From assembly GCA_043806315.1 (NCBI GenBank), contig JAZDHF010000044.1:1-62363 (forward strand): a DNA stretch of 62,363 bases, read 5' to 3'. This DNA is from Planctomycetota bacterium. Its GTDB lineage: Bacteria > Planctomycetota > Phycisphaerae > UBA1845. The notes beneath the pieces were generated by a model, which was given only the letters and a program-made list of their open reading frames with translations, was not told where the DNA came from and searched no databases. Below, one piece after another: positions 5,235 to 46,631 of this stretch (the stretch's first letter is position 1; the number at the start of each line of letters is the position of its first letter). A program made the position numbers and the translations under genes.

Positions 5235-5380
5235 CCTTCTATGAATGGGCGCGTACGCGAGAAACAACCACCCGGTACGTAAAAGGCAAGGCGTGCGGCG
5301 ACCGACCGCGTCCTAGGCCGAGCAGTGTAAGGACTGCCCCACGCCGTGTCGATAACCGATCCTTCGCCGCTCAGGACAAG
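5130..5380. repeat. Three copies of a ~21-nt motif TCCTTCG(A/C)(G/C)NCTCAGGACAAG
   Basis: Copies at about 5130-5150, 5208-5228 and 5360-5380. The first two lie inside the 5' coding end of the amidohydrolase ORF, giving LSLEG and LRLEG. The same motif recurs at 45.6-45.9 kb. Confidence 0.7.
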
Positions 5381-5490
5381 GCGGGAAGCCCAATCCGACT
5401 ACGGACGGGACAAGTCGGGGACGCTGTGTTAGAACTTGTCAACAACGCGGCTCGTGGAAGTCGCGAACGGACGGAGCGCAGGATTGTTTT

Positions 5491-5595
5491 GTCATTCTGA
5501 GCGAAGCGTTTGTCATTCTGAGCGAAGCGAAGCATCTAGAAGCGTAAGAAGATTCTTCGCTGCGCTCAGAATGACATCGCTGCGCTCAGGGTGAC
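5491..5595. repeat. Double inverted repeat of GTCATTCTGAGCGAAGCG
   Basis: Two direct copies (5491-5508, 5512-5529) face two inverted copies CGCTGCGCTCAG(A/G)(A/G)TGAC (about 5555-5575, 5578-5595). The element sits in the divergent intergenic region between the amidohydrolase and epimerase genes. Confidence 0.8.
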
Positions 5596-5610
5596 GGCTT
5601 TCGGGGCGAC

Positions 5611-6567
5611 ATGGCCGACATCTTGGTAACCGGCGGAGCGGGATTCATCGGATCGCACCTGGCGACGCGTTTTGTCGAGCTCGGCCACCGGGTCCGCGTC
5701 TTCGACAATTTCTCGACGGGACACCGATCCAACCTGTCACACCTGGGCGGGCAGGTCGAATTGATCGAGGCGGACTTGCGCGATGCGGCGGCGTGCTTGA
5801 AAGCATGCGAGGGGATCGAGTTCGTCTTCCATGAAGCCGCGCTTGGGTCCGTACCCAAGTCCGTCGAGGACCCGCAGACCAGCCATGACGTAAACATCAA
5901 CGGGACGTTCAACATTCTTCGGGCCGCGGTAGGACAAAAAGTCCGCCGCTTCATCTACGCGGGGAGCAGTTCGGCCTATGGCGACACGGACGAATCGCCC
6001 AAGCATGAAGGAATGCGCCCGCGACCGCTGAGCCCCTACGCCGTGCAGAAGCTCACCGGCGAGGAGTACGCCCGGGCGTTTCATGTTTGTTACGGGTTGG
6101 AAACGATCACGCTGCGATATTTCAACGTGTTCGGGCCGAGGCAGGATCCTAAGAGCCAATACGCGGCGGCGATCCCCGCCTTCGTCAGTGCGATATTGCA
6201 CGGACAAGCGCCCACCGTATATGGCGATGGCGAGCAGTCGCGGGACTTCACCTATATCGACAACGTGGTCGACGGGAACGTCCTCGCGATGTCCGCGAAG
6301 CTTGTCCCGAGTCTCGAAGGAAAGGCGTGCGGCGAGGTGGTGAACGTCGCGTGCGGCGGGCAGATCACCGTGAACCAGGTGATCGCGGCCATCAACAAGG
6401 CGCTGGGGACCAACATCCGACCGCGATACGTCGATCCACGACCCGGCGACGTGCGACATTCGTGCGCCGATGTGCGTTTGGCAACGACGCTTCTGGGATA
6501 CGTCCCGAAGGTGTCCTTCGAGGACGGTCTGGGCCGCGCGATCGACTACTACCGCTCGATCGCATGA
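5611..6567 (+). CDS. NAD-dependent epimerase/dehydratase (UDP-sugar 4-epimerase-like, extended SDR)
   Basis: N-terminal Rossmann motif ILVTGGAGFIGSHL, a catalytic YxxxK in SPYAVQKLTGEEY, and AGSSSAYGD. Length is 318 aa. Confidence 0.85.
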   Translation: MADILVTGGAGFIGSHLATRFVELGHRVRVFDNFSTGHRSNLSHLGGQVELIEADLRDAAACLKACEGIEFVFHEAALGSVPKSVEDPQTSHDVNINGTFNILRAAVGQKVRRFIYAGSSSAYGDTDESPKHEGMRPRPLSPYAVQKLTGEEYARAFHVCYGLETITLRYFNVFGPRQDPKSQYAAAIPAFVSAILHGQAPTVYGDGEQSRDFTYIDNVVDGNVLAMSAKLVPSLEGKACGEVVNVACGGQITVNQVIAAINKALGTNIRPRYVDPRPGDVRHSCADVRLATTLLGYVPKVSFEDGLGRAIDYYRSIA

Positions 6568-32992: not shown

Positions 32993-33178
32993 GTGTACGA
33001 TGACATGGTGAAGCTGGCGGCAACGCTGGCGAAGTACGCGCCAAAGGTTTGTCAGTGCCCGATGAAGTGTGAGGGCGAGAAGAGCTACGACAAGCCCGGA
33101 AAATGCCCCAAGTGCGGCATGGACCTCAAGGACGCCAAGTCGCACGTCGACCATGAGGCCGAGCACGGGGGACATTAA
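32993..33178 (+). CDS. Small heavy-metal-binding-domain (HMBD-like zinc-ribbon) protein, possibly 5'-truncated
   Basis: CQCPMKCEGEKSYDKPGKCPKCGMDLK fits the CPMH...PG-x-CP-x-CGM-x-L HMBD pattern, with a His-rich tail (HVDHEAEHGGH). It begins directly at the IS fragment and uses a GTG start. Confidence 0.5.
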   Translation: MYDDMVKLAATLAKYAPKVCQCPMKCEGEKSYDKPGKCPKCGMDLKDAKSHVDHEAEHGGH

Positions 33179-33295
33179 CGATGACCGGGGCCCACGTCCG
33201 ATGAGGGAGATGGCTGACGGGCGGCCACACGAGAGAGCCCCAGACCCGATTCGGAGTGGCCTTGGATTTCGGGACATGTTCGGTACGGGTCCGCG

Positions 33296-34864
33296 TTGGC
33301 GATTGGATCCGCAACGGAAAATGCTATGATAGTGCGCAAGATGAGTGGGAGATCGTGTGTCGTGTTGCTGGCCGGCTTGACCTGTTCGTGCGCGCGGGTG
33401 GACCACACGGCGGAGTTTCGTCAGGCGGCCGGACAGATGAAGACGGCGTCGGGCCTGGAACCACCGTGGGGCGACGGCGCCGAGCCGCAGGACTTGACGC
33501 TGGACGACGGCGACGTGCTCCCCCTGGATCGCGCCGTCGTGCTGGCTCTACGCAACAACCGGTCCCTTCGCGCGGATCTGGAAACGATCGCGTCGGCCAA
33601 GGCGGATCTCGTACAGGCCGGACTCCTGTCGAATCCGATGCTTTCGGTGATGGCGCGTTTCCCGGAGGGCGGCGGGCGGGCGAGTCTCGATTTCGGTCTT
33701 TCGAAAGACATTGCGGAACTGTGGTTGATCCCCAGCCGCAAACGGGCCGCGCAGCGGATGCTCCAGCGCACGATCCTGTCGTTCACGGATTCGGCCGTCG
33801 CCCTGGTCAACGAAGTGAAGACGACTTACTACACGGTTGGCTATCAGACTACGGCGATCGAGTTGCAGAATCGGAACATCCGGGTCTTGCAGGAGACGGT
33901 GGAACTGGCTCAGGCGAGGTTCCGCGCCGGCGATACGAGCCAGCTCGACGTGAACCTGACGCGAAGTCGGCTCATCGAGGCGCAGTTGGAGCTTCTGGCG
34001 CTTCGAACCGAATACGGGACTTCGCAGCGCACGCTGTTGCGTATGATGGGCGTCGCCGCGTTTCCCGGCGAATGGAGATTCCAGCCAATCGAGCCGCCGC
34101 GTCTTACCGTCGCGGAAGACGAATCCGTCGTGGAAAACACGGCCTTGGAACGGCGACTGGATGTGCAGGCGGCGTGGTGGGAGGTCGAGACCGCCGCGGC
34201 CGACGTGGAGCAGCAGCGCCTCCGCCTGTTTCCTTCATTGGGGCTGGGGCTGTCGGCGGAACGACCCGAACGTCGGGCGACGCCGGGACGCAAACTCTTG
34301 GCGGACACAGCCAGAGCCTCAGCGGCAAACGGAGCGCTGACGGCGCCGGATATCCAGTCCCGCGCTGAGCGCCGTCGCGAACGCAGCCAGGAGATCGACG
34401 CCGTCCTCGGTCCCTCGATCGAGGTTCCGTTGCCGATCTTCGACCAGAACCAGGCCCAGGTCGCCAAAGCACAGGCTCGGGCGCGGGAGTTAAAGCAGCG
34501 TTATGAAGAGATCGAGCAGCGCGTCGTCGAGGGCGTGCGTACCGCACTGTACACCTATCGACTGGCGCAAGAGCGGGTCCGGGTGTTCAAGGAATCCCTC
34601 CTTCCCCAGCAGGACGCGAACCTGCGCTTCGCGGAGAAATCATACCAGGCCGGTCAGGAAAACATCCTGACCGTTCTTCTGGCGCAGGAAGCGCTCATCC
34701 GTTCGCAGCTCAGCGCCGCGGCGGCGGAGCGCGATCTTGCAGTCAGTTCGGCCAACCTCGAACGCCAGCTCGCCGGTCAAATCCCGGACTTTTTGCTTCA
34801 ACCTGCCGAAACTGCGTCGCCGTCCGCGCTGCCGGAGGGCGGAGAAAAGAACAACGATAACTGA
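33296..34864 (+). CDS. Outer-membrane efflux protein, TolC/CzcC/CusC family
   Basis: A lipoprotein-like N-terminus (VVLLAGLTCSCA) and a duplicated OEP-type coiled-coil pattern (LDRAVVLALRNNRSLRA.., ..LTRSRLIEAQLELL..). It is the first gene of a three-gene RND operon. An alternative start is at 33326. Confidence 0.8.
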   Translation: MAIGSATENAMIVRKMSGRSCVVLLAGLTCSCARVDHTAEFRQAAGQMKTASGLEPPWGDGAEPQDLTLDDGDVLPLDRAVVLALRNNRSLRADLETIASAKADLVQAGLLSNPMLSVMARFPEGGGRASLDFGLSKDIAELWLIPSRKRAAQRMLQRTILSFTDSAVALVNEVKTTYYTVGYQTTAIELQNRNIRVLQETVELAQARFRAGDTSQLDVNLTRSRLIEAQLELLALRTEYGTSQRTLLRMMGVAAFPGEWRFQPIEPPRLTVAEDESVVENTALERRLDVQAAWWEVETAAADVEQQRLRLFPSLGLGLSAERPERRATPGRKLLADTARASAANGALTAPDIQSRAERRRERSQEIDAVLGPSIEVPLPIFDQNQAQVAKAQARARELKQRYEEIEQRVVEGVRTALYTYRLAQERVRVFKESLLPQQDANLRFAEKSYQAGQENILTVLLAQEALIRSQLSAAAAERDLAVSSANLERQLAGQIPDFLLQPAETASPSALPEGGEKNNDN

Positions 34865-34887
34865 CCCGACTTTTCAGGATCGCTGCC

Positions 34888-36861
34888 ATGCCGTCGCCAT
34901 CGAGTAACTCAGTCGGAGAGCAGGGGACATCCGTCCTCGGCCGTCTGTGGACGTTCGTTCGGATCATGAACGTCCGACTTCGATTCATCTTCCTGATGCT
35001 CCTCGTGGGCCTGCTCGTCGGCTACTGGGAAACCGTCATGAACTACTACGACCGATGGACGAGACCGGAAACCGTCGTTGCGGCTGTCCAAGCCGAAGAG
35101 ATCGAATACTACTGCGCGATGCATCCCAACATCGTGCGTTCCGAGCCGAGCCAATGCCCGATCTGCGGGATGCCGCTGTCGAAGCGGTCCAAGACGGCCG
35201 CGGCGCAATTGCCGGAGGGTGTTCTGGCACGCCAGCAACTGAGCCCTTACAGGGTAGCGCTGGGGGGCATCGCTACCTCGCCCATCGAGTATCGCCTGCT
35301 GGCGCGGGAAATCCGTACCGTCGGCATTGTGGATTACGATGAGACCCGTCGCGCCTTCATCGCCGCTCGTATCAAGGGGCGCATCGACAAGCTGTTCGTG
35401 AATTATGAAGGACAGCACGTCGAGAAGGGCGACCCTCTGGCTTGGATATACAGTCCGGACCTGCTCACGACGCAGGAAGGTCTACTGGTTGAATACCGCC
35501 GACTTCAGCAGATGCGGGCCGGCAACAGCTCCGACCTCGCCGCCCAGGAATCATTGGTCGAGGACGCCAAGAAAAGACTGATCCTCTGGGGCATTACCGA
35601 ACGGCAAATCGACGAAATCCTCGCCCGCGGCACGTCACAGACTCACCTCGTCATCTACTCACCGATGGCCGGCATTGTGACGGAGAAGAACGTGCTTGAG
35701 GGCCATTATGTGGAGGCAGGCGGAGACCTTTATACGATCGCGGATCTCAGTCGAGTTTGGATGCAGGCGAAAATCTTTGAAGACGAGATGGCCGGCGTCG
35801 ATGTCGGCAGCGCGGTGGAAACCAGGAGCACGGCCTACCCCAATGAAATCTTCGCCGGGCGGATCGCGTTCGTCGCGTACACGGTAGACCCCACGACCCG
35901 AACCGTGGCGGCCCGGGTGGAAGTCGATAACCCAGACTACAAACTGAAACCGGGCATGTACGCCCAGGCCTACATTCGACTGCCGGTCGGCAAAGTGACC
36001 GTACTAACGGAGGAGGAGGCGAAAGCCGCCTTGGCGCCCCAGGCTGCGAAACCTTCCGCCACATCGACGGACGTCCTGACGGCCGCGTACCTCGATCTCG
36101 TCGCCGCGTTCTTTAACGACAAGACGGACGAGGCGGCCCTCGCCAAGCTGCGTTCCGAGGCCGAAACCCTCAAACAGCGTCTCACCGGCGAAGCCGCCGC
36201 ACACTCAGGCGCCATTTTCGAAAGCGCCGTCGCCATGACCGGCAAGCCCCTCGCCGAGCAACGCAAACAGCTCAAGTCCCTCAGCGCTCACGCCATCGAG
36301 CTGCTACGGAAGAATCCCCCCGCCCAGGTCACCCTGTACGTCGTGCACTGCCCGATGGTCCCGGCTGACTGGCTGCAATCGCGGAAGGGAATCAACAATC
36401 CCTATTACGGACCGGAGATGGCCTACTGCGGTGAAGTGACCGGCTCCATTGAACACGCCGCCGGCGGACAGGACCCGCGGTTCGCGGTGGGTTACTACTG
36501 CCCGGTTTTTCCCGATCGGCTTTACGAGAAACCGGAAACCTGCCCACTGGACAAGTTTCCGTTGAAACCGGCCAGGGTGGAGAGGGTTCTTGCTGTTCCC
36601 GCATCCGCGATTGTGAACACGGGCAAGCGGAAAGTCGTCTACCGCGAGAGCGCTCCCGGCACCTTCGATATGCTCGAGATTGAAGCGGGCAACCGGGCGG
36701 GCGAATTCTATCCCGTGGTTACGGGCCTGAAGGAAGGTGATCGCGTGGCGACGGCCGGGGCCTTTCTCGTCGACGCCGAGAATCGTTTGAATCCCGCCGC
36801 GAGCGCCCAGTACTTCGGCGCCAGCGGCGGACCGCAAAGCGGTCAGCAGGACAAACATTAG
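34888..36861 (+). CDS. RND efflux periplasmic adaptor (CusB/CzcB-like) with N-terminal HMBD and an internal DUF3347-like insert
   Basis: The HMBD is YYCAMHPNIVRSEPSQCPICGMPL and the MFP core includes IKGRIDKLFVNYEGQHVEKGDPL. An extra helical segment is followed by VVHCPMV...WLQ and a degenerate second CP..CP motif. Confidence 0.8.
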   Translation: MPSPSSNSVGEQGTSVLGRLWTFVRIMNVRLRFIFLMLLVGLLVGYWETVMNYYDRWTRPETVVAAVQAEEIEYYCAMHPNIVRSEPSQCPICGMPLSKRSKTAAAQLPEGVLARQQLSPYRVALGGIATSPIEYRLLAREIRTVGIVDYDETRRAFIAARIKGRIDKLFVNYEGQHVEKGDPLAWIYSPDLLTTQEGLLVEYRRLQQMRAGNSSDLAAQESLVEDAKKRLILWGITERQIDEILARGTSQTHLVIYSPMAGIVTEKNVLEGHYVEAGGDLYTIADLSRVWMQAKIFEDEMAGVDVGSAVETRSTAYPNEIFAGRIAFVAYTVDPTTRTVAARVEVDNPDYKLKPGMYAQAYIRLPVGKVTVLTEEEAKAALAPQAAKPSATSTDVLTAAYLDLVAAFFNDKTDEAALAKLRSEAETLKQRLTGEAAAHSGAIFESAVAMTGKPLAEQRKQLKSLSAHAIELLRKNPPAQVTLYVVHCPMVPADWLQSRKGINNPYYGPEMAYCGEVTGSIEHAAGGQDPRFAVGYYCPVFPDRLYEKPETCPLDKFPLKPARVERVLAVPASAIVNTGKRKVVYRESAPGTFDMLEIEAGNRAGEFYPVVTGLKEGDRVATAGAFLVDAENRLNPAASAQYFGASGGPQSGQQDKH

Positions 36862-36888
36862 TCGGCGCCGCCAGCCGCGAGGGCGGAC

Positions 36889-39800
36889 ATGGTCCCAAGG
36901 ATCATCGAATACTGCATCCGCAACCGCTTCATCGTGCTCATGATCATGGCCGGTGTGGCCGTGTGGGGCGTCTATTGCGTGCTCAAGACGCCGATCGACG
37001 CCATTCCCGACCTTTCCGAAAACCAGGTCATCGTCTTCACCGATTGGATGGGTCGGGCGCCGCAGGAAATCGACGACCAGATCACCTATCCGCTGTCGGT
37101 GAACTTGCAAGGCCTCGCGGGCGTGAAGGCCATCCGCTCGGCGAGCGAATTCAACTTCTCGATGATCAACATCATCTTCGACGAGCACACGGACTTCTAC
37201 TTCGCTCGCACGCGGGTCCTCGAACGGTTGAACATCGCCGGCACCTTCCTGCCCGCGGGGGCAGTGCCCTACCTCGCCCCTGATGCGACGGCGCTGGGAC
37301 AAATCTTTTGGTATACGGTGGAAGGCGACGGCTACAGCATCGACGAGCTGCGTGCCGTTCAGGACTGGTATGTCCGCTACCAGCTTTACGTTCCGGGCGT
37401 AGCCCAGGTGTCCAGCGTCGGAGGGTTCGTCCGGGAGTACCAGATCGACGTGGACCCCGACAAGCTGCGGGCGTTCGAGATTCCGCTCAGCACCGTCTTC
37501 GACGCCGTCGCCCGCAGCAACATCGCCGTCGGCGGCAAGGTCTATTTCGAGAACAACGCCGAGTACCTGATCCGCGGCGTGGGCTGGCTTCGCGGCGTCC
37601 ACGACCTGGAAAACGTCGTCGTCGCCGAGCGCAAGGGCGTGCCGATCTACATTCGCAACCTCGCCGCGGTGCAACTCGGTCCCGAATACCGCCGCAGCAT
37701 GTTGGAGAAGAACGACCGCGAGGCCGTCGGCGGCGTGGTGATGATGCGCTTTGGCGAGAACCCGCTGGCCGTCACCCAGTCCATCAAGGAACGCATCGAG
37801 CAATTGCAGGCGGGGCTCCCACCCGGCGTTCGCATCGTTCCCTTCTACGACCGTACCCGTCTAATCGATGGCGCCATCCACACCCTCGTCAGCACGCTCA
37901 CGCAAGAACTGATCGTAGCCAGCATTGCGATTCTGCTGATCCTGGCTCATTTCCGCAGCGCGATCGTCGTGTGCAGCACCCTGCCGATGGCCGTGCTCGT
38001 GGCGTTCATTTTCATGTATTACCTGGGCGTGCCCAGCAACATCATGTCCCTGTCCGGCATCGCCATTTCCATCGGTCTTTTCGTGGATGCCGCCGTGGTG
38101 ATGGTCGAGAACACGATCCACCAGTTGACCAAAGAGCATGGATCGGCCCGGATTCGCGGCGACACAACGGAAGCGGTGGTCCGCGCCTGCCGGTTGGTCG
38201 GCGCACCCATCTTTTTCGCCATGCTGATCATGCTGGTCTCGTTCATTCCCGTCTTTGCACTGGGCGGCACGGAAGGAAAGATGTTCCATCCGCTCGCGTT
38301 CACCAAGACGTTTGCCATGATCGGCGTGGCCATCATGGCCGTGACATTCGTGCCGGCGATGATTCCGATCTTCGTCAGGGGCCGCCTCCAGCGCGAAGAG
38401 GACAACTGGTTCGTCCGCACTTTCATCAACATCTACAAGCCGGTCCTGACTTGGCTCATGCACGTGCCCGCCGCGGGCATCTGGTTCATGGGTTTTTTGT
38501 TCATCGTCGGGACCGGGTTCATTGGGAGCCGTTCGCTTTTTCTGGGCATGCTCGCCCTGTCGTTGTTTTTCGGCAGCGTGTTCTTTCGACGGGCGTGGAG
38601 TAAGGGGCTGGCGTTCGTTCTGCTGTTCGCGACCGCGGTGTGGGCGTGGGGATTCCCGAAGCTGGGACGCGAGTTCATGCCTCCCCTGGACGAGGGGAGC
38701 GTTCTCGACATGCCCGTGACCGTCCCGCGAGTCTCGATCACTCAAGCGGCCGACGACATCCGCGTACGCGATGCGGTCATGCGCGGCTTCCCGGAAGTGG
38801 ACCAGGTCGTCGGCAAGGTCGGTCGGGCCGACACACCCACCGACCCGTCCGGCATCGACATGGTCGAGACGGTGGTCACTTTGCGACCCAAGGAGTGGTG
38901 GCCCAAGCGTAAGCTGCAGTTCAATGACGCCCTTGACGAAGCCCGACGATTGATCGCCGTCCTTCAGGAGAAAGGTCAACTGAAAGAGGATCTCGCCAAG
39001 GACGCGATCGAGACGCTGGCCAACAACGCGGCGATGGATGCGACGGTGGAGTTCGACCGCGCGATGCGCGATCTCGCCCTCCGGAGGCAGTTGGAGTTCG
39101 AGCCGGTGCTCGCCGAGCGTCTGGTTCGTGGGACCGTCGACGACCTCCTACGACTTTTCCGAACGAAGGGCGTCCTCAAACACGAGCCGGCGACGGCGGA
39201 CCTCGGTCCGATGATCGCGCCGCTCGTCAAGGAACACGGCTTGCTTCTCGTCGAAGTGCCGCGGCAGGAGGAAATAACTAAGCTCGTTGATTCGATCGCC
39301 CAGCGTCTTTCCGATCTCGGCGCCGTGGACAGGACGCCGGAGCTGCTTCTGCCGCGAGCCTTGTTCTGGACGGATCTGCGCGACGCGGTCCTCACGGCCC
39401 TGGGCGGCGAAAAACTGACGCTCGTCGGCGACTTGTTCGAACGCTGGCAACAGCGACTTCACGACGGTTGGGTCGAACGCGTCAGGGTGCTGAATTGGGA
39501 GCTAGAGGACCAGGCCGGCGGCGGCATGGTCTGGTCGCTGCTCACCGTCCTACGAGGACATGCCGAAGCAACCGGTCAGATCGCCCGTAATCCGAGCGAC
39601 GCCGACCTCCAGGCCATCCGCGCAACAGAGGAAGCGAGTTTTCGCAAACGCATCTTCCTCTGGCACAAGCTCAAGAGCGACATCGTCAAGGAAATGGACA
39701 GCGAACTGCAGATGCCCGGCTGGGGCAACATCTGGACGCAGCCCATCATCAACCGCGTGGATATGCTCGCCACCGGCGTGCGCACCATGATCGGCGTCAA

Positions 39801-41046
39801 GGTCTTCGGTCCCCGCCAGGAGGATCTTACGGAGAACACCGTCGAGAACGGCGTCGCGCGGGAGGTCGTGAAGGAGAAGGGTATTCAGTCCATCGCCAAC
39901 GAGCTCGCCGCCGTGCTCCGCGGCATCCGCGGTGCCGTGGACGTTTTCCCCGACCAAATCGTCGGCCGCAGCTACCTGCAGATCGACATCGATCGTGAGA
40001 AAGCGGCCCGCTACGGCGTCAATGTGTCGGAGATCGAGGAAGCGATCGAGGTGGCGATGGGGGGAAAGACGATCACGACCACCGTCGAGGGGCGACGACG
40101 GTTCCCCGTTCGCGTCCGCTACGCCCGCGATTTCTGGCAGACCGAGGACGCCCTTCGACGGGTGCTGGTTACCGGTAGACGAGGGGCGAGCGCCGAAAGA
40201 ATCGCAACCGGAAGCACGACGTCGCCCGCTTCTATGGGTAGGGATAACTCCGCCGCGATGGCCGGCGGCGAGGTCTTCCAGATACCCATCAGCGAAGTGG
40301 CCGACATCAACGTCGTCGAAGGCCCGAGCGTCATCAAGAGCGAAAACGGCATGTTGCGCTCCTATGTGCAACTGAACGTTCGCGACCGCGACATCGTCGG
40401 TTTCGTCGAAGAGGCCCAGCGCGCCGTCGCGGAACAGGTCAAACTTCCCACCGGTTTCTTCATCGAATGGAGCGGCCAATTTGAGCACCAGGTCCGGGCG
40501 AAGAAAACGCTCCAGGTCATCTTTCCGATGGTCGTGCTGTTGATGTTCGTCATCCTCTACATGACTTTCAACGACGTCCGCGATGCGCTGCTTATCATGC
40601 TCTCCGTGCCCGGGGCCCTGATCGGCGGCGTCATCTTTCAGAGCCTCTTCGGCTTCAATTTCAGCGTGGCCGTCTGGGTCGGCTACATTGCCTGTTTCGG
40701 GGAGGCGACACAGACCGGCATCGTCATGCTCGTGTACTTGCACGATGCGATCAACTCCCGCGGCGGGCTTGCGAAGATCGCGACCCCAAGCGAACTCACC
40801 AATGCGATCATCAGCGGAGCGGTCCACCGGCTTCGCCCGAAACTCATGACCGAGGGCGTGGCCATCGTCGGCCTGATGCCCATGCTCTGGGCCACGGGGG
40901 TCGGGGCGGAAGTCATGAAACCGATGGCGGCCCCGGTGCTAGGTGGCCTGTTGGTGGCGGACGAGGTCATCGATCTGCTACTGCCGGTCGTGTTCAATTG
41001 GTACCAGAGCCGCCGTTGGCGCCGCTTACACGCAGTAGTCCCTTGA
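36889..41046 (+). CDS. cusA: Heavy-metal efflux RND pump, CusA/CzcA family (expanded, 1385 aa)
   Basis: The N-terminus is [16 protein letters not shown]...[35 protein letters not shown]. There are 12-TM RND topology blocks, and large extra segments relative to the usual length of about 1040 aa. Confidence 0.9.
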   Translation: [1385 protein letters not shown]

Positions 41047-41220
41047 CCCCTCATCGGAGTTAGCTTATGATCGGGAGCGCATTGGAAGATGTTCAAGCCC
41101 GTCCAACCGGGTTTGGCTTGGCGCGCTGCGCTAGTGCAAGGGGCGTGACCGCGCCAAGAGCGCACTGGGCGCGGCTCCTGTGATGCTCGGGTACGATCCA
41201 AGGTGTGTTGAGATGGTGCA

Positions 41221-41874
41221 ATGGAAGAGCGAACTAAGTCCTTTGATGCGCTAGTTGACTTTCGCAGGCGAACGCCTCTAAGCGAACTCGACGAAGCCAG
41301 GCTAGCGGAGTTCGTCGAATCGCTTCAACTGGACAAAGATGGCTATGACATCGGACGGCGGAAAGAAGCGAGGATATTATCGTTCGCCGGCGGTCAGATG
41401 ATCCTACAAGAAGACGGCACCGCGCACGTCCGGCTCAAGGGGTGGCCATGGGGAAAGGCAGCTACTGTCGTGACCGCATTCATTCGTCAGCTTTGTACCG
41501 TGTATAATTGGGATGCCGACGTCGAAGTATTCCAGCTTTACCTTGATGTTGATCTCGAGGTCGATTTTCCAGATGCTACCTCGTCGGCGCATCTCGAGAA
41601 CGCGATAAAAGCCGATTGGCTGAGCAGGCTTACGCCGGAGGGCGAGACCGCGAGAGCAGCGGGGTTGAAGCTGTTCTTGAGTGACCTCGGCAGCCGTGAT
41701 GAGGACGTTCGTCTTCGCGTTGAGCCCCTCGCGGCTGAGCCGCACTCAAAGGCGTTCGTGAACGTGACAGGGCTTTTCAGCAATACGAGTGTTGCGCAGG
41801 CAAACCAATGCGTGGAACGGCTTGAGAAGATCGCTGCCGCCACCCAATTAACGCTGAAGAATCAGGGCAGTTGA
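41221..41874 (+). CDS. Hypothetical acidic cytoplasmic protein (no recognisable family)
   Basis: 217-aa ORF in an AT-richer tract. Its stop (TGA at 41872-41874) is 1 nt from the ATG of the next ORF. No TM segment or signal, and no motif I can name. Confidence 0.55.
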   Translation: MEERTKSFDALVDFRRRTPLSELDEARLAEFVESLQLDKDGYDIGRRKEARILSFAGGQMILQEDGTAHVRLKGWPWGKAATVVTAFIRQLCTVYNWDADVEVFQLYLDVDLEVDFPDATSSAHLENAIKADWLSRLTPEGETARAAGLKLFLSDLGSRDEDVRLRVEPLAAEPHSKAFVNVTGLFSNTSVAQANQCVERLEKIAAATQLTLKNQGS

Positions 41875-41875
41875 T

Positions 41876-42991
41876 ATGCTTTCATCCGATATTCGTCAAG
41901 ATCCCACTGCCCGTAGGAAGAAGAACACTAAGACCCGGTCGGGCGGATTCGAAAAAACTCAGGAAGTGCAGGCGCTTCCGTCTGGCGTGGACCTTGTTGG
42001 GTTCCTGGCGTTGGAGAATTACGCCCGATGGAAGCGTTCGACAGGATTGGAACCTTCAGAACCGTCAAGGGTTCCGGCTGGCGTAGCGCGCGAGCTAGAC
42101 CGTGGCAATGTGTGGAGAGCCAGGAAGCTCGACCTGCCAAGCGGTTCCACGGGTGTATTCGACTACGAGGATTACTCTGACCGTAACATTCCAAGCTACG
42201 AGCTCCCTCCCGCAAGAGATCGGTTTGTTCGCGGGAAAATTCCCAAGCGGGCCCGTCCGTCGACCGGGTTCGTCGGGCAGAACTTGACGCTCACAGAGTA
42301 CATCGCCTTGACCCAGCAGCAGAAGCTCGACCTACAACTTGATGTGCTGGAGGCGAACAGGGAGTGGATCCAGCAGACATTCCAACAGACGGGTGCCGCA
42401 TGGTTCATGGTAGTCGATGGGGAAGTAGTAGGATCCTCGACTGATATCGACGAGTATCCTCAGGAGGCCGCTGTATTGCAGATTTGCCAGCGGAGAGGCA
42501 AATTCCCTTTCATATTCACGGACGATCGTCGCTTGCTGGTTGAGGAAAACTCTTCACCCTGGTCCAGAACAGAGAATCCGGGCGACACCTACCCTACAGT
42601 GAAAATTGCGATACGCTCGGACGATTCGGCTCTCAGTTGGACCGCGGATTTTGATACGGGTGCCGGTATCGATTTTTTCGACCTCGGTCGATTGGAGTCT
42701 TGTGCTTTGATCGAGATCCTGTCCACGGACGTCCCGCAGCGCGGCCGCCATCTGGATATGGAGTACTGGTACTTCTGGAAGCTCCTCCTCATCGGGCTAG
42801 TGCCAGCTGCCGGTCCCGCGCGTTATCCGCCCTCTCCGGTGAACGTCAGGTGCGTGTTGAAGTGGGACGAGAGCCCGTGGGTGAAGATCAATCCCGATCG
42901 CTCGGCGCTGATGGGACGTCGCCTTTTCCACATGCTGCAACCAGCCGTCATCCTCAGGTTCGCCACGCAAACAACAGACATCATATTCTGA
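41876..42991 (+). CDS. Unknown N-terminal region + DUF5678-like segment + retropepsin-like (clan AA) aspartic protease domain
   Basis: GAAWFMVVDGEVVGSSTDIDEYPQEAAVLQICQRRGKFPFIF looks DUF5678-like. It is followed by YPTVKIAIRS...WTADFDTGAGIDFF (a D-T-G-A active-site motif) and a C-terminal ALMGRRLFHML, like the ILG-x-D-x-L flap-end motif. Confidence 0.6.
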   Translation: MLSSDIRQDPTARRKKNTKTRSGGFEKTQEVQALPSGVDLVGFLALENYARWKRSTGLEPSEPSRVPAGVARELDRGNVWRARKLDLPSGSTGVFDYEDYSDRNIPSYELPPARDRFVRGKIPKRARPSTGFVGQNLTLTEYIALTQQQKLDLQLDVLEANREWIQQTFQQTGAAWFMVVDGEVVGSSTDIDEYPQEAAVLQICQRRGKFPFIFTDDRRLLVEENSSPWSRTENPGDTYPTVKIAIRSDDSALSWTADFDTGAGIDFFDLGRLESCALIEILSTDVPQRGRHLDMEYWYFWKLLLIGLVPAAGPARYPPSPVNVRCVLKWDESPWVKINPDRSALMGRRLFHMLQPAVILRFATQTTDIIF

Positions 42992-43002
42992 CGTAGCCTC
43001 AG

Positions 43003-43227
43003 GGCGTACATCGACTGCGACCGCAACACATGACCGAGGGAACCACGATCATCGGCCTGCTGCCCATGCTCTGGGCCACGGGCGTGGGTGCTGAGATTAT
43101 GAGGCCGATGGCGGCCCCGGTGCTCGGCGGCTTGTTGGTCGCAGACGAAGTGATTGACCTGCTGCTTCCCGTCATCTTCAACTGGTACCAAACGCGGCGT
43201 TGGCGAAAACTCCATCCATCGGCGTAA
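43003..43227 (+). pseudogene. Orphan 3'-terminal fragment of a cusA/czcA gene (last ~74 codons)
   Basis: [74 protein letters not shown] parallels the end of the intact CusA ([22 protein letters not shown]...[16 protein letters not shown]). It begins 11 nt after the stop of the preceding ORF, with a stop codon just upstream in frame. Confidence 0.85.
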
Positions 43228-43590
43228 CCTCGGAAAGTTGAGCCGACAGTTTGTTGTCGGGCGGCACCCTCGAAACAGCGAGTGGGGTCGTGTTCACGCC
43301 GCGACAGAGAGTACATGGCCCGAGCGTGGGCAAGTCACGGCGCGCCGCGCAAGATGAGTTTCGCGGTGCCGGGTGCGAGGGTAAGTAGGCCCAAAAACAA
43401 GTGAAAAGTGATCAATCCACTCCGCTGAGTTCCGCGCGACGCTTCTTCCCCACCAATGGAATCTTCCGATTTGTCGCGTGCCTAACGAATCACCAAACGG
43501 AGTGAACCCGCACAAGACATCGGGGCGTGAGCGGCAACGTCCAGGTCTCGCGACCCGCGGCGCAGCCCAACGCCTGCGGGTCGGAAACGG

Positions 43591-44869: not shown

Positions 44870-45625
44870 TTACGACCGGCTGGCGATGGCCGCCGCGAGC
44901 GGGTTCACGAAGCTGGGGACCACCTTGTCGGTGGCGAGCTCGTCGGCGGTGTCGAACAACGAGGGCAGCACGTCCGCCGGCGACGAGGCCCCGTTCATGC
45001 CCCAATACTTGCGGAGGGTCAGGAAGACGCTGATCGGCTCGCCGTCGAAGTTGCCGCTGCGGACCTCGAAGGTGGAGGTGCGCGACTTCACTTCGACGTA
45101 GGCCTGCAAGTCGCACTCCGGCGTAAGAGCGATGCCGAAGTAGGGCTGAGCGTCGATGATGTGCGTCGCCTGGTCGCCGAACAAGAGGCCCGCGGCTGCG
45201 TGCTCGCCGCAGAGCGTCTCGGCCACAAGCTGGTCATGGTTGCCGCGATAGCGCAGGTCGAACCCGTAGATCAACTCAAGGTGGTCGTAGGCCAGGTCGC
45301 TGAAGGTCAGGTGATACGGCGCTTGGGCGAGGATCAACCCGCCGAACCGGCGGACGGCGTCCAGGTCGGGCGGGGCGAAGTGCCCGAAGCGCAGGCTGCT
45401 CGCGTCCAGCCGGATCCAGCGGCGCGAGCCGTGCTCATCGGCCTCGTCTTCCAGGGTGAACGCGCCCGCCTCTCGACGCCGCAGCTTGCGCAGCGTCGGG
45501 TACTCCTTGCGGATGCGGTCGAAAAAGTGTAACACCGCCTCCGGCTCAAGGCTCATCTCGAGCTTGAGGAAGAGGCGACTGCTGACGTAGAAGTCGTCGC
45601 AAACCGCGCCGTAGCCGTTGCTCAT
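44870..45625 (-). CDS. Hypothetical protein (no recognisable family)
   Basis: 251-aa ORF with ordinary composition and an ATG start. The overlapping + strand ORF 44573..45532 is Arg/Gly/Val-rich, as expected for an antisense frame. Confidence 0.6.
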   Translation of the reverse strand: MSNGYGAVCDDFYVSSRLFLKLEMSLEPEAVLHFFDRIRKEYPTLRKLRRREAGAFTLEDEADEHGSRRWIRLDASSLRFGHFAPPDLDAVRRFGGLILAQAPYHLTFSDLAYDHLELIYGFDLRYRGNHDQLVAETLCGEHAAAGLLFGDQATHIIDAQPYFGIALTPECDLQAYVEVKSRTSTFEVRSGNFDGEPISVFLTLRKYWGMNGASSPADVLPSLFDTADELATDKVVPSFVNPLAAAIASRS

Positions 45626-45635
45626 GGCCGACCTC

Positions 45636-45968
45636 TCCTTCGAGACTCAGGACGAGTTTCGGACGGACGCTCCACTGGGTTGTGGCGCCGGCTTCCAGCC
45701 GGTGAGAACACGGGCTGGAAGCCCGTGCCACGCTGCCGCCTCATTATTAGTGAAGTCGCGAGCGATTTCAACCGTCCACCGTTCCTTCGAGACCTGAGCG
45801 GCGAAGGGTCAGGACAGGTCCGGGTCGGGGATGACGGGGCTCCGGTCCTTCGAGACTCAGGACAAGGGTTGCCAAGACCGGTCGCTGCGGGAATCATACA
45901 GCCGATCCACTTGGTTGTGGCACCGGCTTCCAGCCGGTGAGAACACGGGCTGGAGGCCCGCGTCACAC
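45636..45968. repeat. Composite repeat array: three TCCTTCGAGACTCAGGAC(A/G)AG-type motifs plus two copies of a GGCTTCCAGCC-loop-GGCTGGA(A/G)GCC hairpin
   Basis: Motifs lie at 45636-45656, 45782-45818 (interrupted) and 45846-45866. Hairpins with conserved flanks (TTGTGGC(G/A)CCGGCTTCCAGCCGGTGAGAACACGGGCTGGA..) lie at 45690-45723 and 45925-45958. Confidence 0.8.
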
Positions 45969-46022
45969 CGCCGACGCAACGATGGGCTGCGGGCGGACTT
46001 TCGACCGAAGAAGGAGGACTCC

Positions 46023-46631
46023 GTGGCTGAAGCGAAGCGCTATCCGTCGATCTTGATGTTCGGATGTCCAGGCTCGGGTAAGGGCACGCAGGGGGTGGCG
46101 CTGGGGGCCATGCCGAACCTAGTGCACCTGGCCATGGGCGACATCTTCCGCGGGCTGGATAAGACCTCGGAGATCGGCAAGGAGTTCCTTTCCTTCTCCA
46201 CGAAGGGCCTGCTGGTCCCCGACGAACTGACCGTGCGGGTCTTCCGGCAACACGTCGAACAACTTATCGCCGCGGGCCGGATCGACCCGGCGTACCACAC
46301 GTTGATCCTCGACGGGATTCCGCGCACGCTGCGTCAGGTCGAGTTGCTGGCCGACGTAATCGAGGTGAAACGCGTCGTTTATCTTATGATCGAGGACCGC
46401 GATGCGCTCATCGCCCGGCTGGCCAAGCGGGCGGCGAAATCGAACCGCCCCGACGACGCCGATCGTGCGGTGATCGAGAACCGCATCCTGGTGTACGAAC
46501 GCGAGACGCACCCCGTGCTCGATGCGTATCCGAAGAAGCTGCTCGCCCGGGTCAACGCGGACCAGCCGCCGCTGGGCGTCCTGCGCGACGTGGCCGATTG
46601 CCTGGTCGGATACGTGTCGGCCAAGATTTAG
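46023..46631 (+). CDS. adk: Adenylate kinase
   Basis: P-loop FGCPGSGKGTQG. The GTG start at 46023 is preceded by AAGGAGG with 5-nt spacing. About 202 aa. The longer 45831 start runs through the repeat array. Confidence 0.8.
   Translation: MAEAKRYPSILMFGCPGSGKGTQGVALGAMPNLVHLAMGDIFRGLDKTSEIGKEFLSFSTKGLLVPDELTVRVFRQHVEQLIAAGRIDPAYHTLILDGIPRTLRQVELLADVIEVKRVVYLMIEDRDALIARLAKRAAKSNRPDDADRAVIENRILVYERETHPVLDAYPKKLLARVNADQPPLGVLRDVADCLVGYVSAKI

Follow-up and report, generated by a model that had tools for sequence, protein, structure and literature searches.

Two adjacent genes of foreign composition

The contig JAZDHF010000044.1 of a Planctomycetota bacterium (assembly GCA_043806315.1; Phycisphaerae, UBA1845) was analysed over 62,363 nucleotides (positions 1 to 62,363 of the forward strand; referred to here as the window). 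It carries a cassette of two open reading frames (ORFs), ORF-A (41221-41874, + strand, 217 aa) and ORF-B (41876-42991, + strand, 371 aa), which are located directly 3' of a gene for an RND efflux pump. A preliminary description made from the DNA sequence had placed the two ORFs one nucleotide apart, and their coordinates, the + strand and the junction (stop codon TGA at 41872-41874, a single t at 41875, start codon ATG at 41876-41878) could be verified. The spacing appears to fit translational coupling.

ORF-A is acidic (isoelectric point (pI) 4.95), possesses no hydrophobic segment and looks soluble, in line with its earlier characterization as an acidic, cytoplasmic-looking protein that can be placed in no family. 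ORF-B has neither a signal peptide nor a membrane segment. No family match was found for either protein in Pfam, NCBIfam, PADLOC-DB 2.0 or PHROGs. The cassette was also said to be compositionally foreign, and indeed its GC content (0.53-0.58) is below that of the flanks (0.62-0.68), as is the GC content at third codon positions (GC3) of ORF-A (0.61) and ORF-B (0.65) compared with the neighbouring genes (0.75-0.91). Both ORFs are genuine coding genes: for ORF-A there is a homologue with 52% identity together with 16 more full-length relatives (about 200-230 aa), and the C-terminal ~240 residues of ORF-B are related to genes at ~48 other loci.

A predicted retropepsin-like protease domain in ORF-B

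The C-terminal part of ORF-B (42566-42991, + strand; residues ~231-371) is predicted to be a retropepsin-like aspartic protease domain of clan AA. It contains the sequence ADFDTGAG (residues 257-264, with D260-T-G encoded by nt 42653-42661) and, near the C-terminus, the motif LMGRRLF (G347-R348). These hydrophobic-D-T-G-A and LMGRRLF motifs had been likened to those of single-lobe clan AA proteases, and they are present and embedded in a predicted retropepsin fold. The AlphaFold2 model of ORF-B has predicted local distance difference test (pLDDT) values of 80-92 over residues 130-371 (about 80-90 for residues 235-371). In a Foldseek search of the PDB with this model, the top matches were the proteases of human T-lymphotropic virus 1 (HTLV-1), human immunodeficiency virus 2 (HIV-2), simian immunodeficiency virus (SIV) and HIV-1 (target TM-score 0.6-0.73, probability 1.0, best expectation value (E) 9e-4), and lower-ranked matches included Ddi1, Rickettsia APRc (5c9f/5c9d) and Pseudomonas RloA (9g58).

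Sequence comparison of the family is consistent with this fold. Of 27 full-length relatives of ORF-B, 26 retain the Asp of the D(T/S)G motif, and family-wide conservation (27 relatives) also extends to the late GR motif ('aLiGR'). The profiles PF13650, PF13975, TIGR02281 and TIGR03698 gave no match to ORF-B at E<=1, none of the curated clan-AA hidden Markov models (HMMs) matched the ORF-B relatives (13 scanned with Pfam, 3 with NCBIfam), and PDB sequence searches with family profiles returned nothing. Because of the predicted fold, the nearly invariant Asp of the DTG motif and the conserved GR, a single-lobe retropepsin fold for residues ~235-371 is supported, though the curated HMMs miss the family.

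We regard ORF-B as a predicted cytoplasmic clan-AA protease domain fused behind a DUF5678-like domain. It represents a new subfamily and a new architecture of a known protease clan that is missed by current HMM libraries. With the established prokaryotic clan AA families (PF13650, Asp_protease_2; PF13975, gag-asp_proteas; TIGR02281, clan_AA_DTGA; TIGR03698, clan_AA_DTGF) it has in common a single-lobe domain of ~130 aa and the combination of a hydrophobic-hydrophobic-D-T-G-A motif with a late G-R motif; stand-alone members of these families also adjoin ORF-B relatives (L007_129: PF13650, E=6e-9; TIGR02281, E=7e-9). Unlike these families, the ORF-B protease has a DUF5678-like domain and a variable N-terminal extension fused in front of it, and a longer stretch (87 residues) separates its DTG from its GR.

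The DUF5678-like domain and the N-terminal extension

The protease domain is preceded by a helical linker and the DUF5678-like domain (42260-42565, + strand; residues ~129-230; pLDDT 80-92) with the core AAWFMVVDGEVV...GKFPFIF. The DUF5678-like segment itself covers residues ~173-215, and this region is conserved across the 27 relatives. The preliminary description had noted a segment resembling DUF5678; this appears to be a remote resemblance that lies below the Pfam gathering threshold. The Pfam model DUF5678 (PF18929; gathering threshold 23.2 bits) does not match ORF-B of the window. Sub-threshold matches were found at the aligned segment in the relatives P0006 (E=0.0036), P0005, L104 and L105 (E 0.0036-0.18, 12-17.5 bits). 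Furthermore, an HMM of the ORF-B mid-domain matches a bona fide DUF5678 protein, L009_78, with E=2.7e-6 (in a small set of 22 sequences). Profile alignment of the domain with DUF5678 (hhalign) gave E=9e-4 and a probability of 23%, and alignment with the DUF5678 segment of L016_264 gave E=0.1. Taken together, these comparisons suggest that the resemblance is real but remote. It extends to the core pattern (G-x-W-hydrophobic-A-V-V-x-G-x-V-V followed by G-x-x-P-hydrophobic-hydrophobic).

The same two domains occur elsewhere as separate genes. Split and overlapping pairs of a DUF5678 gene and a clan-AA protease gene can be found at L007/L008, L009 and L016, with the DUF5678 gene directly 5' of the protease gene, i.e., in the domain order of ORF-B; the DUF5678 assignment is true for L009 and L016 and sub-threshold for L007 (E=0.014). 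As such split pairs are recurrent, ORF-B may be regarded as the fused form of a recurrent pair. DUF5678 is a free protein of ~78 aa elsewhere, whereas in ORF-B it is internal to a protein of 371 aa. No publication on the function of DUF5678 was found in the literature searched.

The N-terminal extension of ORF-B (41876-42259, + strand; residues 1-128; GC3 0.578) is basic (pI 10.1) and predicted to be disordered (pLDDT <50 at residues 1-38 and 58-128). The earlier designation of this N-terminus as basic and unknown is borne out: residues 1-128 have no homologue and are unique to the window, and the relatives are mostly gapped or unconserved in this region. Note that the codon periodicity of residues 1-128 is weak and that translation from an alternative GTG at nt 42110, in the same frame, would yield 293 aa, a size typical of the family.

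The ORF-B family

The ORF-B family comprises six close homologues and 42 further metagenomic loci (~48 loci), in which the similarity is confined to the C-terminal ~240 residues. A single metagenome accounts for more than 30 of the 42 metagenomic loci (L102-L143, mostly Ga0247727). Three family genes are arranged in tandem at L104 (515-3383), and fragmented copies are present at L108 and L136. At the syntenic loci L107/L122, L102/L106 and L112/L113, the coding sequences are 69-76% identical and their flanks 86-92%. The genes are thus less conserved than their surroundings, which identifies the locus as hypervariable. Hypervariability, many copies, tandems and fragments are, as far as can be judged from sequence comparison, features of conflict-gene-like behaviour.

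The N-terminal extensions vary among the relatives. P0004 (L007, 986-1954) carries a VapB_antitoxin-like segment (E=4e-4) and P0006 (L011, 590-1906) a Clp_N segment (E=2e-5) in this position. P0005 adjoins a gene for an 85-aa protein, which is followed by a ParE toxin gene.

APRc is membrane-associated. Rickettsia APRc (PMC4140852) and the Pseudomonas Rlo proteins (PMC11957051) are characterized bacterial retropepsin-like enzymes with physiological roles, and the Rlo proteins are described as secreted (PMC11957051); the PDB description of RloA (9g58) gives it as periplasmic. ORF-B is predicted to have the same fold class as APRc and RloA-C. It differs from APRc and Rlo proteins in having no signal peptide or membrane segment, in being located on foreign DNA and in belonging to a hypervariable, multi-copy family.

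The ORF-A family and its operons

Word-based searches of 5.8 billion proteins retrieved a single ORF-A homologue (P0008, 52% identity). An exhaustive HMMER scan of 1.84 billion representatives gave 18 matches at E<=0.001, that of the window included; most of them are full-length (about 200-230 aa) and one is a fragment of 92 aa. One match, to an insect protein of 474 aa, consisted of six short stretches and was discarded as unrelated. The relatives include proteins from Woesearchaeota and Thermofilum genomes, both metagenome-assembled. The first ORF, for which a lack of conserved homologues would have spoken against the preliminary description, thus belongs to a real, very rare and unannotated family present in bacteria and archaea. 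The only library match of ORF-A at E<=1 was PPL4 (Prim-pol 4, E=0.13), which was treated as noise because no other member of the family shows it. Fold searches with the ORF-A model gave recurring weak matches to SRPBCC/Bet v1-like folds (probability up to 0.6), which we take as a lead only.

In all eight locus types known, the ORF-A-family gene is followed by a gene on the same strand at a spacing of -62 to +8 nt. The downstream gene encodes 264-371 aa; in the eighth type, L013, the contig stops 63 aa into it. The ORF-A proteins all detect one another (E 1e-10 to 1e-80), whereas their downstream partners do not. No similarity among the proteins downstream of ORF-A relatives was found by BLASTP, single-sequence hhalign or MAFFT, except between L001_329 and L144_295 (25% identity over 153 aa, E=0.019), which have the motifs GLRxxFVxG and hydrophobic-V-hydrophobic-D...ALhxG in common. 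This suggests that at least some of these middle proteins may form a fast-evolving family. They show no similarity to the N-terminus of ORF-B, and the ~300-aa middle proteins have no match in PADLOC.

The preliminary description would be refuted if homologues of the two genes did not co-occur, and for the specific pairing they do not: no ORF-A relative is present at the ~48 ORF-B-family loci, and no ORF-B-family gene at the ORF-A loci. The related question of whether ORF-A always accompanies a retropepsin-like gene has a partly positive answer at the level of the protease class, as a retropepsin-like protease is encoded in three of the six informative ORF-A operons. Besides the window, where it is fused, these are L001-L004 and L016, in which it is the third gene. 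The third gene of L001-L004 carries the motifs VVDTGAW...AVLGMDVL. At L016, the ORF-A partner ends in a DUF5678 domain (E=1e-5) and is followed by a 181-aa protein with LLDSGAP...GIIGTDFF. The double protease motif was found in no other of 2520 background ORFs, except in a true Asp_protease_2 gene.

Effector-like genes are also present in other operons of the family. The operon at L020 ends with a SIR2 gene (5235-6353; PADLOC SIR2/ThsA, E about 1e-8). In the Woesearchaeota genome GCA_016177265.1 (L014, 1915-9045), the ORF-A relative is part of an island-like arrangement. It is preceded by a tyrosine integrase and a HerA-like ATPase of 659 aa, whose tail may be a Cas4/CoiA-like nuclease, and followed by a protein of 322 aa, one of 151 aa in which PIN-like motifs can be recognized by eye (MIAVDSDVFL, FGDALIIG, TWNVKDF), and a serine resolvase on the opposite strand. 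The HerA-like ATPase in distant ORF-A operons matches PADLOC mad8/HerA with E 1e-10 to 1e-14. Furthermore, Pol-beta nucleotidyltransferases adjoin ORF-A relatives at two archaeal-type loci (L017, 2694-3881; L020, 2453-3556, - strand); they are 39% identical to each other and show weak PADLOC matches to cyclase models of the cyclic oligonucleotide-based antiphage signalling system (CBASS).

The ORF-A operons resemble SIR2-HerA systems, Thoeris with its ThsA-like SIR2 and type II toxin-antitoxin (TA) pairs in that they are tight operons on mobile or foreign DNA, appear to link a constant component to interchangeable effector domains and, at distant loci, contain SIR2 and a HerA-like ATPase. They differ from the known defence systems represented in PADLOC in that ORF-A, ORF-B and the middle proteins are unmatched and only neighbours at distant loci match.

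Insertion at the 3' end of the RND efflux gene

The host genome belongs to the Phycisphaerae (Planctomycetota), and the insertion affects the 3' end of its cusA-like RND gene. This gene (36889-41046; pump of 1385 aa) is the last of a cusCBA-like operon, where it follows the genes for an outer-membrane factor (33296-34864) and for a HlyD/CusB-like protein that possesses a heavy-metal-binding domain (34888-36861); the cassette lies on the same strand. Pfam ACR_tran (1021 positions) matches the pump in three stretches, the first at residues 5-539, and the extra length of the pump presumably falls between them.

The last part of the RND gene (40822-41021) is found again at 43006-43205 as an imperfect direct repeat of 200 nt with 79% identity, which had escaped the preliminary description. 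The left copy is part of the 3' end now used by the pump gene (40822-41046, + strand) and marks the left edge of the insertion; the right copy (43002-43227, + strand) marks the right edge and contains an ORF for a 65-aa C-terminal fragment of ACR_tran (43030-43227; Pfam, E=3.6e-9). Among 80 related RND loci, the closest relative is L022 from the metagenome-assembled genome of an uncultured Phycisphaera, with 90.4% identity over 33160-41019 of the window. The L022 site is uninterrupted and lacks the cassette. Positions 43005-43266 of the window are 91.6% identical to positions 9323-9584 of L022, through the stop codon of the pump gene and ~60 nt past it, and therefore the right-hand fragment is the ancestral 3' end, now displaced. 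The left copy is closest to another lineage (L052, 86.9%) and only ~75-78% identical to L022, which makes it the replacement. Neither cassette gene occurs in any of the 80 related loci.

The comparison thus shows a horizontally acquired insertion of ~2.18 kb (about 40822-43005), which supplied the pump gene with a replacement 3' end. The claim that the cassette is foreign and inserted is strengthened by the repeat, the uninterrupted site in L022 and the low GC3. An assembly artefact was judged unlikely because the two repeat copies share only 79% identity. The insert encodes only ORF-A and ORF-B, neither of which matches a recombinase family. It is similar to genomic islands restoring the 3' end of their target gene in that an imperfect direct repeat flanks the insert, the incoming copy is used by the intact gene with the original end displaced, and a close relative keeps the empty site. 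Unlike such islands, this insert has only ~2.2 kb and no integrase.

The identity to L022 drops from about 40400, i.e., ~400 nt 5' of the repeat. Recombination has left the RND gene a mosaic: similarity to L063 (95-98%) at 38549-38788 gives way to similarity to L022 (mostly 87-98%) at about 38800-40400, L063 is matched once more at 40409-40768, and another lineage after 40769. Because of this early divergence and the mosaic structure, the mechanisms of insertion are not separable. Site-specific integration followed by decay of a larger island, Campbell-type integration and homology-facilitated recombination are equally possible, and site-specific integration as the only mechanism was rejected on the same grounds.

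The spacer between the RND stop codon and ORF-A (41047-41220, + strand) shows no special RNA fold (z = -0.23) and no Rfam match, and no terminator-like site was found on the + strand between the RND gene and the cassette. A sigma-70-like site at 41043-41071 (TTGACC-17-TATGAT, 10 of 12 matches) was dismissed as a meaningful signal, as the number of such sites found is not above chance expectation.

Other features were observed further downstream. Two copies of an 81-nt element (45663-45743 and 45898-45978; 85% identical), each with an internal hairpin with arms of 23 nt, are located upstream of and within the 5' end of an annotated adenylate-kinase ORF (45831-46631). The element resembles a repetitive extragenic palindromic (REP) sequence or a palindromic repeat similar to miniature inverted-repeat transposable elements (MITEs), and the true adenylate-kinase start probably lies downstream of its second copy. 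A 251-aa protein without Pfam match is encoded at 44870-45625 (- strand; GC3 0.91); at the loci retrieved, only L095 holds a relative of it (33% identity).

Possible function of the cassette

We tentatively favour, at somewhat less than even confidence, a modular effector operon as the explanation of these data. The cassette would be a compact form of an undescribed operon type in which an interchangeable effector is controlled or licensed by the ORF-A-family protein. In the present case, the effector would be a protease that its own DUF5678-like domain gates in cis and that acts after dimerization. In such operons, the constant ORF-A-family protein would be coupled to a retropepsin-like protease (in the window and two other operons), to SIR2 in one and to a PIN-like protein in one. 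ORF-A would be a regulatory or sensing partner that could either restrain or license the effector. The DUF5678-like domain would correspond to the small DUF5678 proteins encoded 5' of stand-alone clan-AA proteases and might serve as an in-cis inhibitor or pro-domain. A trigger (e.g., phage infection or loss of the partner) would then allow the protease to form a homodimer, each chain contributing one DTG, to free itself and to cleave cellular targets, leading to growth arrest. The outcome would be toxin-antitoxin-like or abortive-infection-like behaviour.

A number of observations weigh against the modular-operon reading. The exact combination of ORF-A and ORF-B is unique to the window, and the gene that likewise starts 1 nt past that of P0008, the closest homologue of ORF-A, encodes a 329-aa protein without similarity to ORF-B. 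The ORF-B-family genes are otherwise solitary with unrelated neighbours, and as ~48 of them stand alone, the fused protease does not need ORF-A; no relatives were found in phage, plasmid and viral-contig collections. Since the ORF-A family is known from only ~8 locus types, the neighbourhood statistics are thin. Among the effectors, L003_226 was assigned to the retropepsins by motifs alone, L016_181 by motifs with very weak Pfam and BLASTP matches, and L014_151 to PIN proteins by motifs judged by eye alone; none of the three has significant HMM or PDB sequence support. The AlphaFold2 model of ORF-A is poor (pLDDT 59.7, built from 2 sequences only) and gave no significant match in PDB and viral fold searches, and no DNA-binding antitoxin-like domain was detected in ORF-A with Pfam and NCBIfam. 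The preliminary suggestion of a toxin-antitoxin-like or phage-defence-like module gains nothing from PADLOC, where neither protein is matched. The system-level idea is a reasonable but thinly supported lead.

A rather doubtful, though serious, alternative is that the two genes were juxtaposed by chance in a decayed island. A solitary ORF-B gene and an ORF-A gene deprived of its usual ~300-aa partner would have been joined by a deletion, and the 1-nt gap would reflect compaction. Every other ORF-B-family gene is solitary, ORF-A relatives usually have a partner of ~260-330 aa unrelated to ORF-B, and an insertion without a recombinase fits a remnant. The unique N-terminus of ORF-B with its weak coding signal points in the same direction, as does a possible GTG start 235 nt past the ORF-A stop codon. 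However, the ATG 1 nt past this stop codon reproduces the spacing in the operon of the closest homologue, the ORF-B frame is open for 128 codons 5' of the conserved module (p about 0.01, estimated from base composition), and two other ORF-A operons independently hold a retropepsin-like protease, one of them together with DUF5678, a coincidence that would be unlikely for rare domains.

The cassette could also be a plain type II TA pair that stabilizes the acquired DNA and has no role in phage defence, with ORF-A as an acidic, labile antitoxin binding the basic N-terminus of ORF-B and blocking the protease toxin. We consider this quite unlikely. The two adjacent same-strand genes on foreign DNA, with a spacing compatible with coupling, speak for such a pair, as do the opposite charges of ORF-A (pI 4.95) and the ORF-B N-terminus (10.1), and ORF-B relatives do occur near TA genes (ParE near P0005) or carry a VapB-like N-terminus (P0004). 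But 217 aa is a large size for an antitoxin, ORF-A shows no recognizable DNA-binding domain, and the pairing of the two families is not conserved across genomes. The relatives differ from classic TA families in that ORF-A is constant, the downstream gene varies and operons of three or four genes occur, and the literature searched contains no description of a protease toxin of this class. An even less probable explanation, to which we give little credence, is that the cassette is cargo unrelated to conflict, encoding a regulated processing protease that cleaves ORF-A or another host protein and is possibly expressed by read-through from the metal-efflux operon. Its position on the same strand directly 3' of the cusCBA-like genes, with no terminator-like site on the + strand, would permit this, and the surrogate RND 3' end brought in with the insert indicates that the cassette lay downstream of an RND gene in the donor context, too. 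The characterized bacterial retropepsin-like enzymes do have physiological roles (PMC4140852, PMC11957051). Nevertheless, none of the 80 related RND loci carries the cassette, relatives of both genes occur in unrelated contexts, and ORF-B differs from APRc and the Rlo proteins in that it lacks a signal peptide and a membrane segment; moreover, a housekeeping enzyme would not be expected to be as hypervariable and as expanded in copy number as the ORF-B family.

A more far-reaching version of the modular-operon reading can be formulated, which we regard as unlikely. ORF-A would define a new family of modular conflict systems in bacteria and archaea, consisting of a constant protein of ~215 aa, usually a fast-evolving middle protein of ~300 aa and swappable effectors (retropepsin-like, SIR2 or PIN-like), with a HerA-like ATPase or Pol-beta nucleotidyltransferase in some cases. 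The window would represent a two-gene form with a DUF5678-gated retropepsin, the first retroviral-type aspartic protease to act as an effector of immunity or toxicity in prokaryotes.

Although retropepsin-like proteases are widespread in prokaryotes, they have hardly been studied, and to our knowledge no toxin or immune role has been assigned to any of them; no description of retropepsins in toxin-antitoxin or defence contexts was found in the literature searched. At the locus described here, such a protease is associated with a DUF5678-like domain, which elsewhere is repeatedly encoded by a gene of its own upstream of the protease gene, and with a very rare protein family in whose operons SIR2 and PIN-like effectors are found as well. 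It also belongs to a family that is hypervariable and expanded in copy number throughout. Even if the modular-operon reading is not true, the locus would still be a clean example of a small recombinase-free insertion repairing its target gene, and ORF-B would still define a new subfamily of clan AA proteases missed by current HMM libraries. If it is true, DUF5678 would gain a testable function as a protease gate, aspartic proteases would join the known effector types of prokaryotic conflict systems, and the finding would be relevant to the question of how retroviral proteases arose from clan-AA enzymes of cells.

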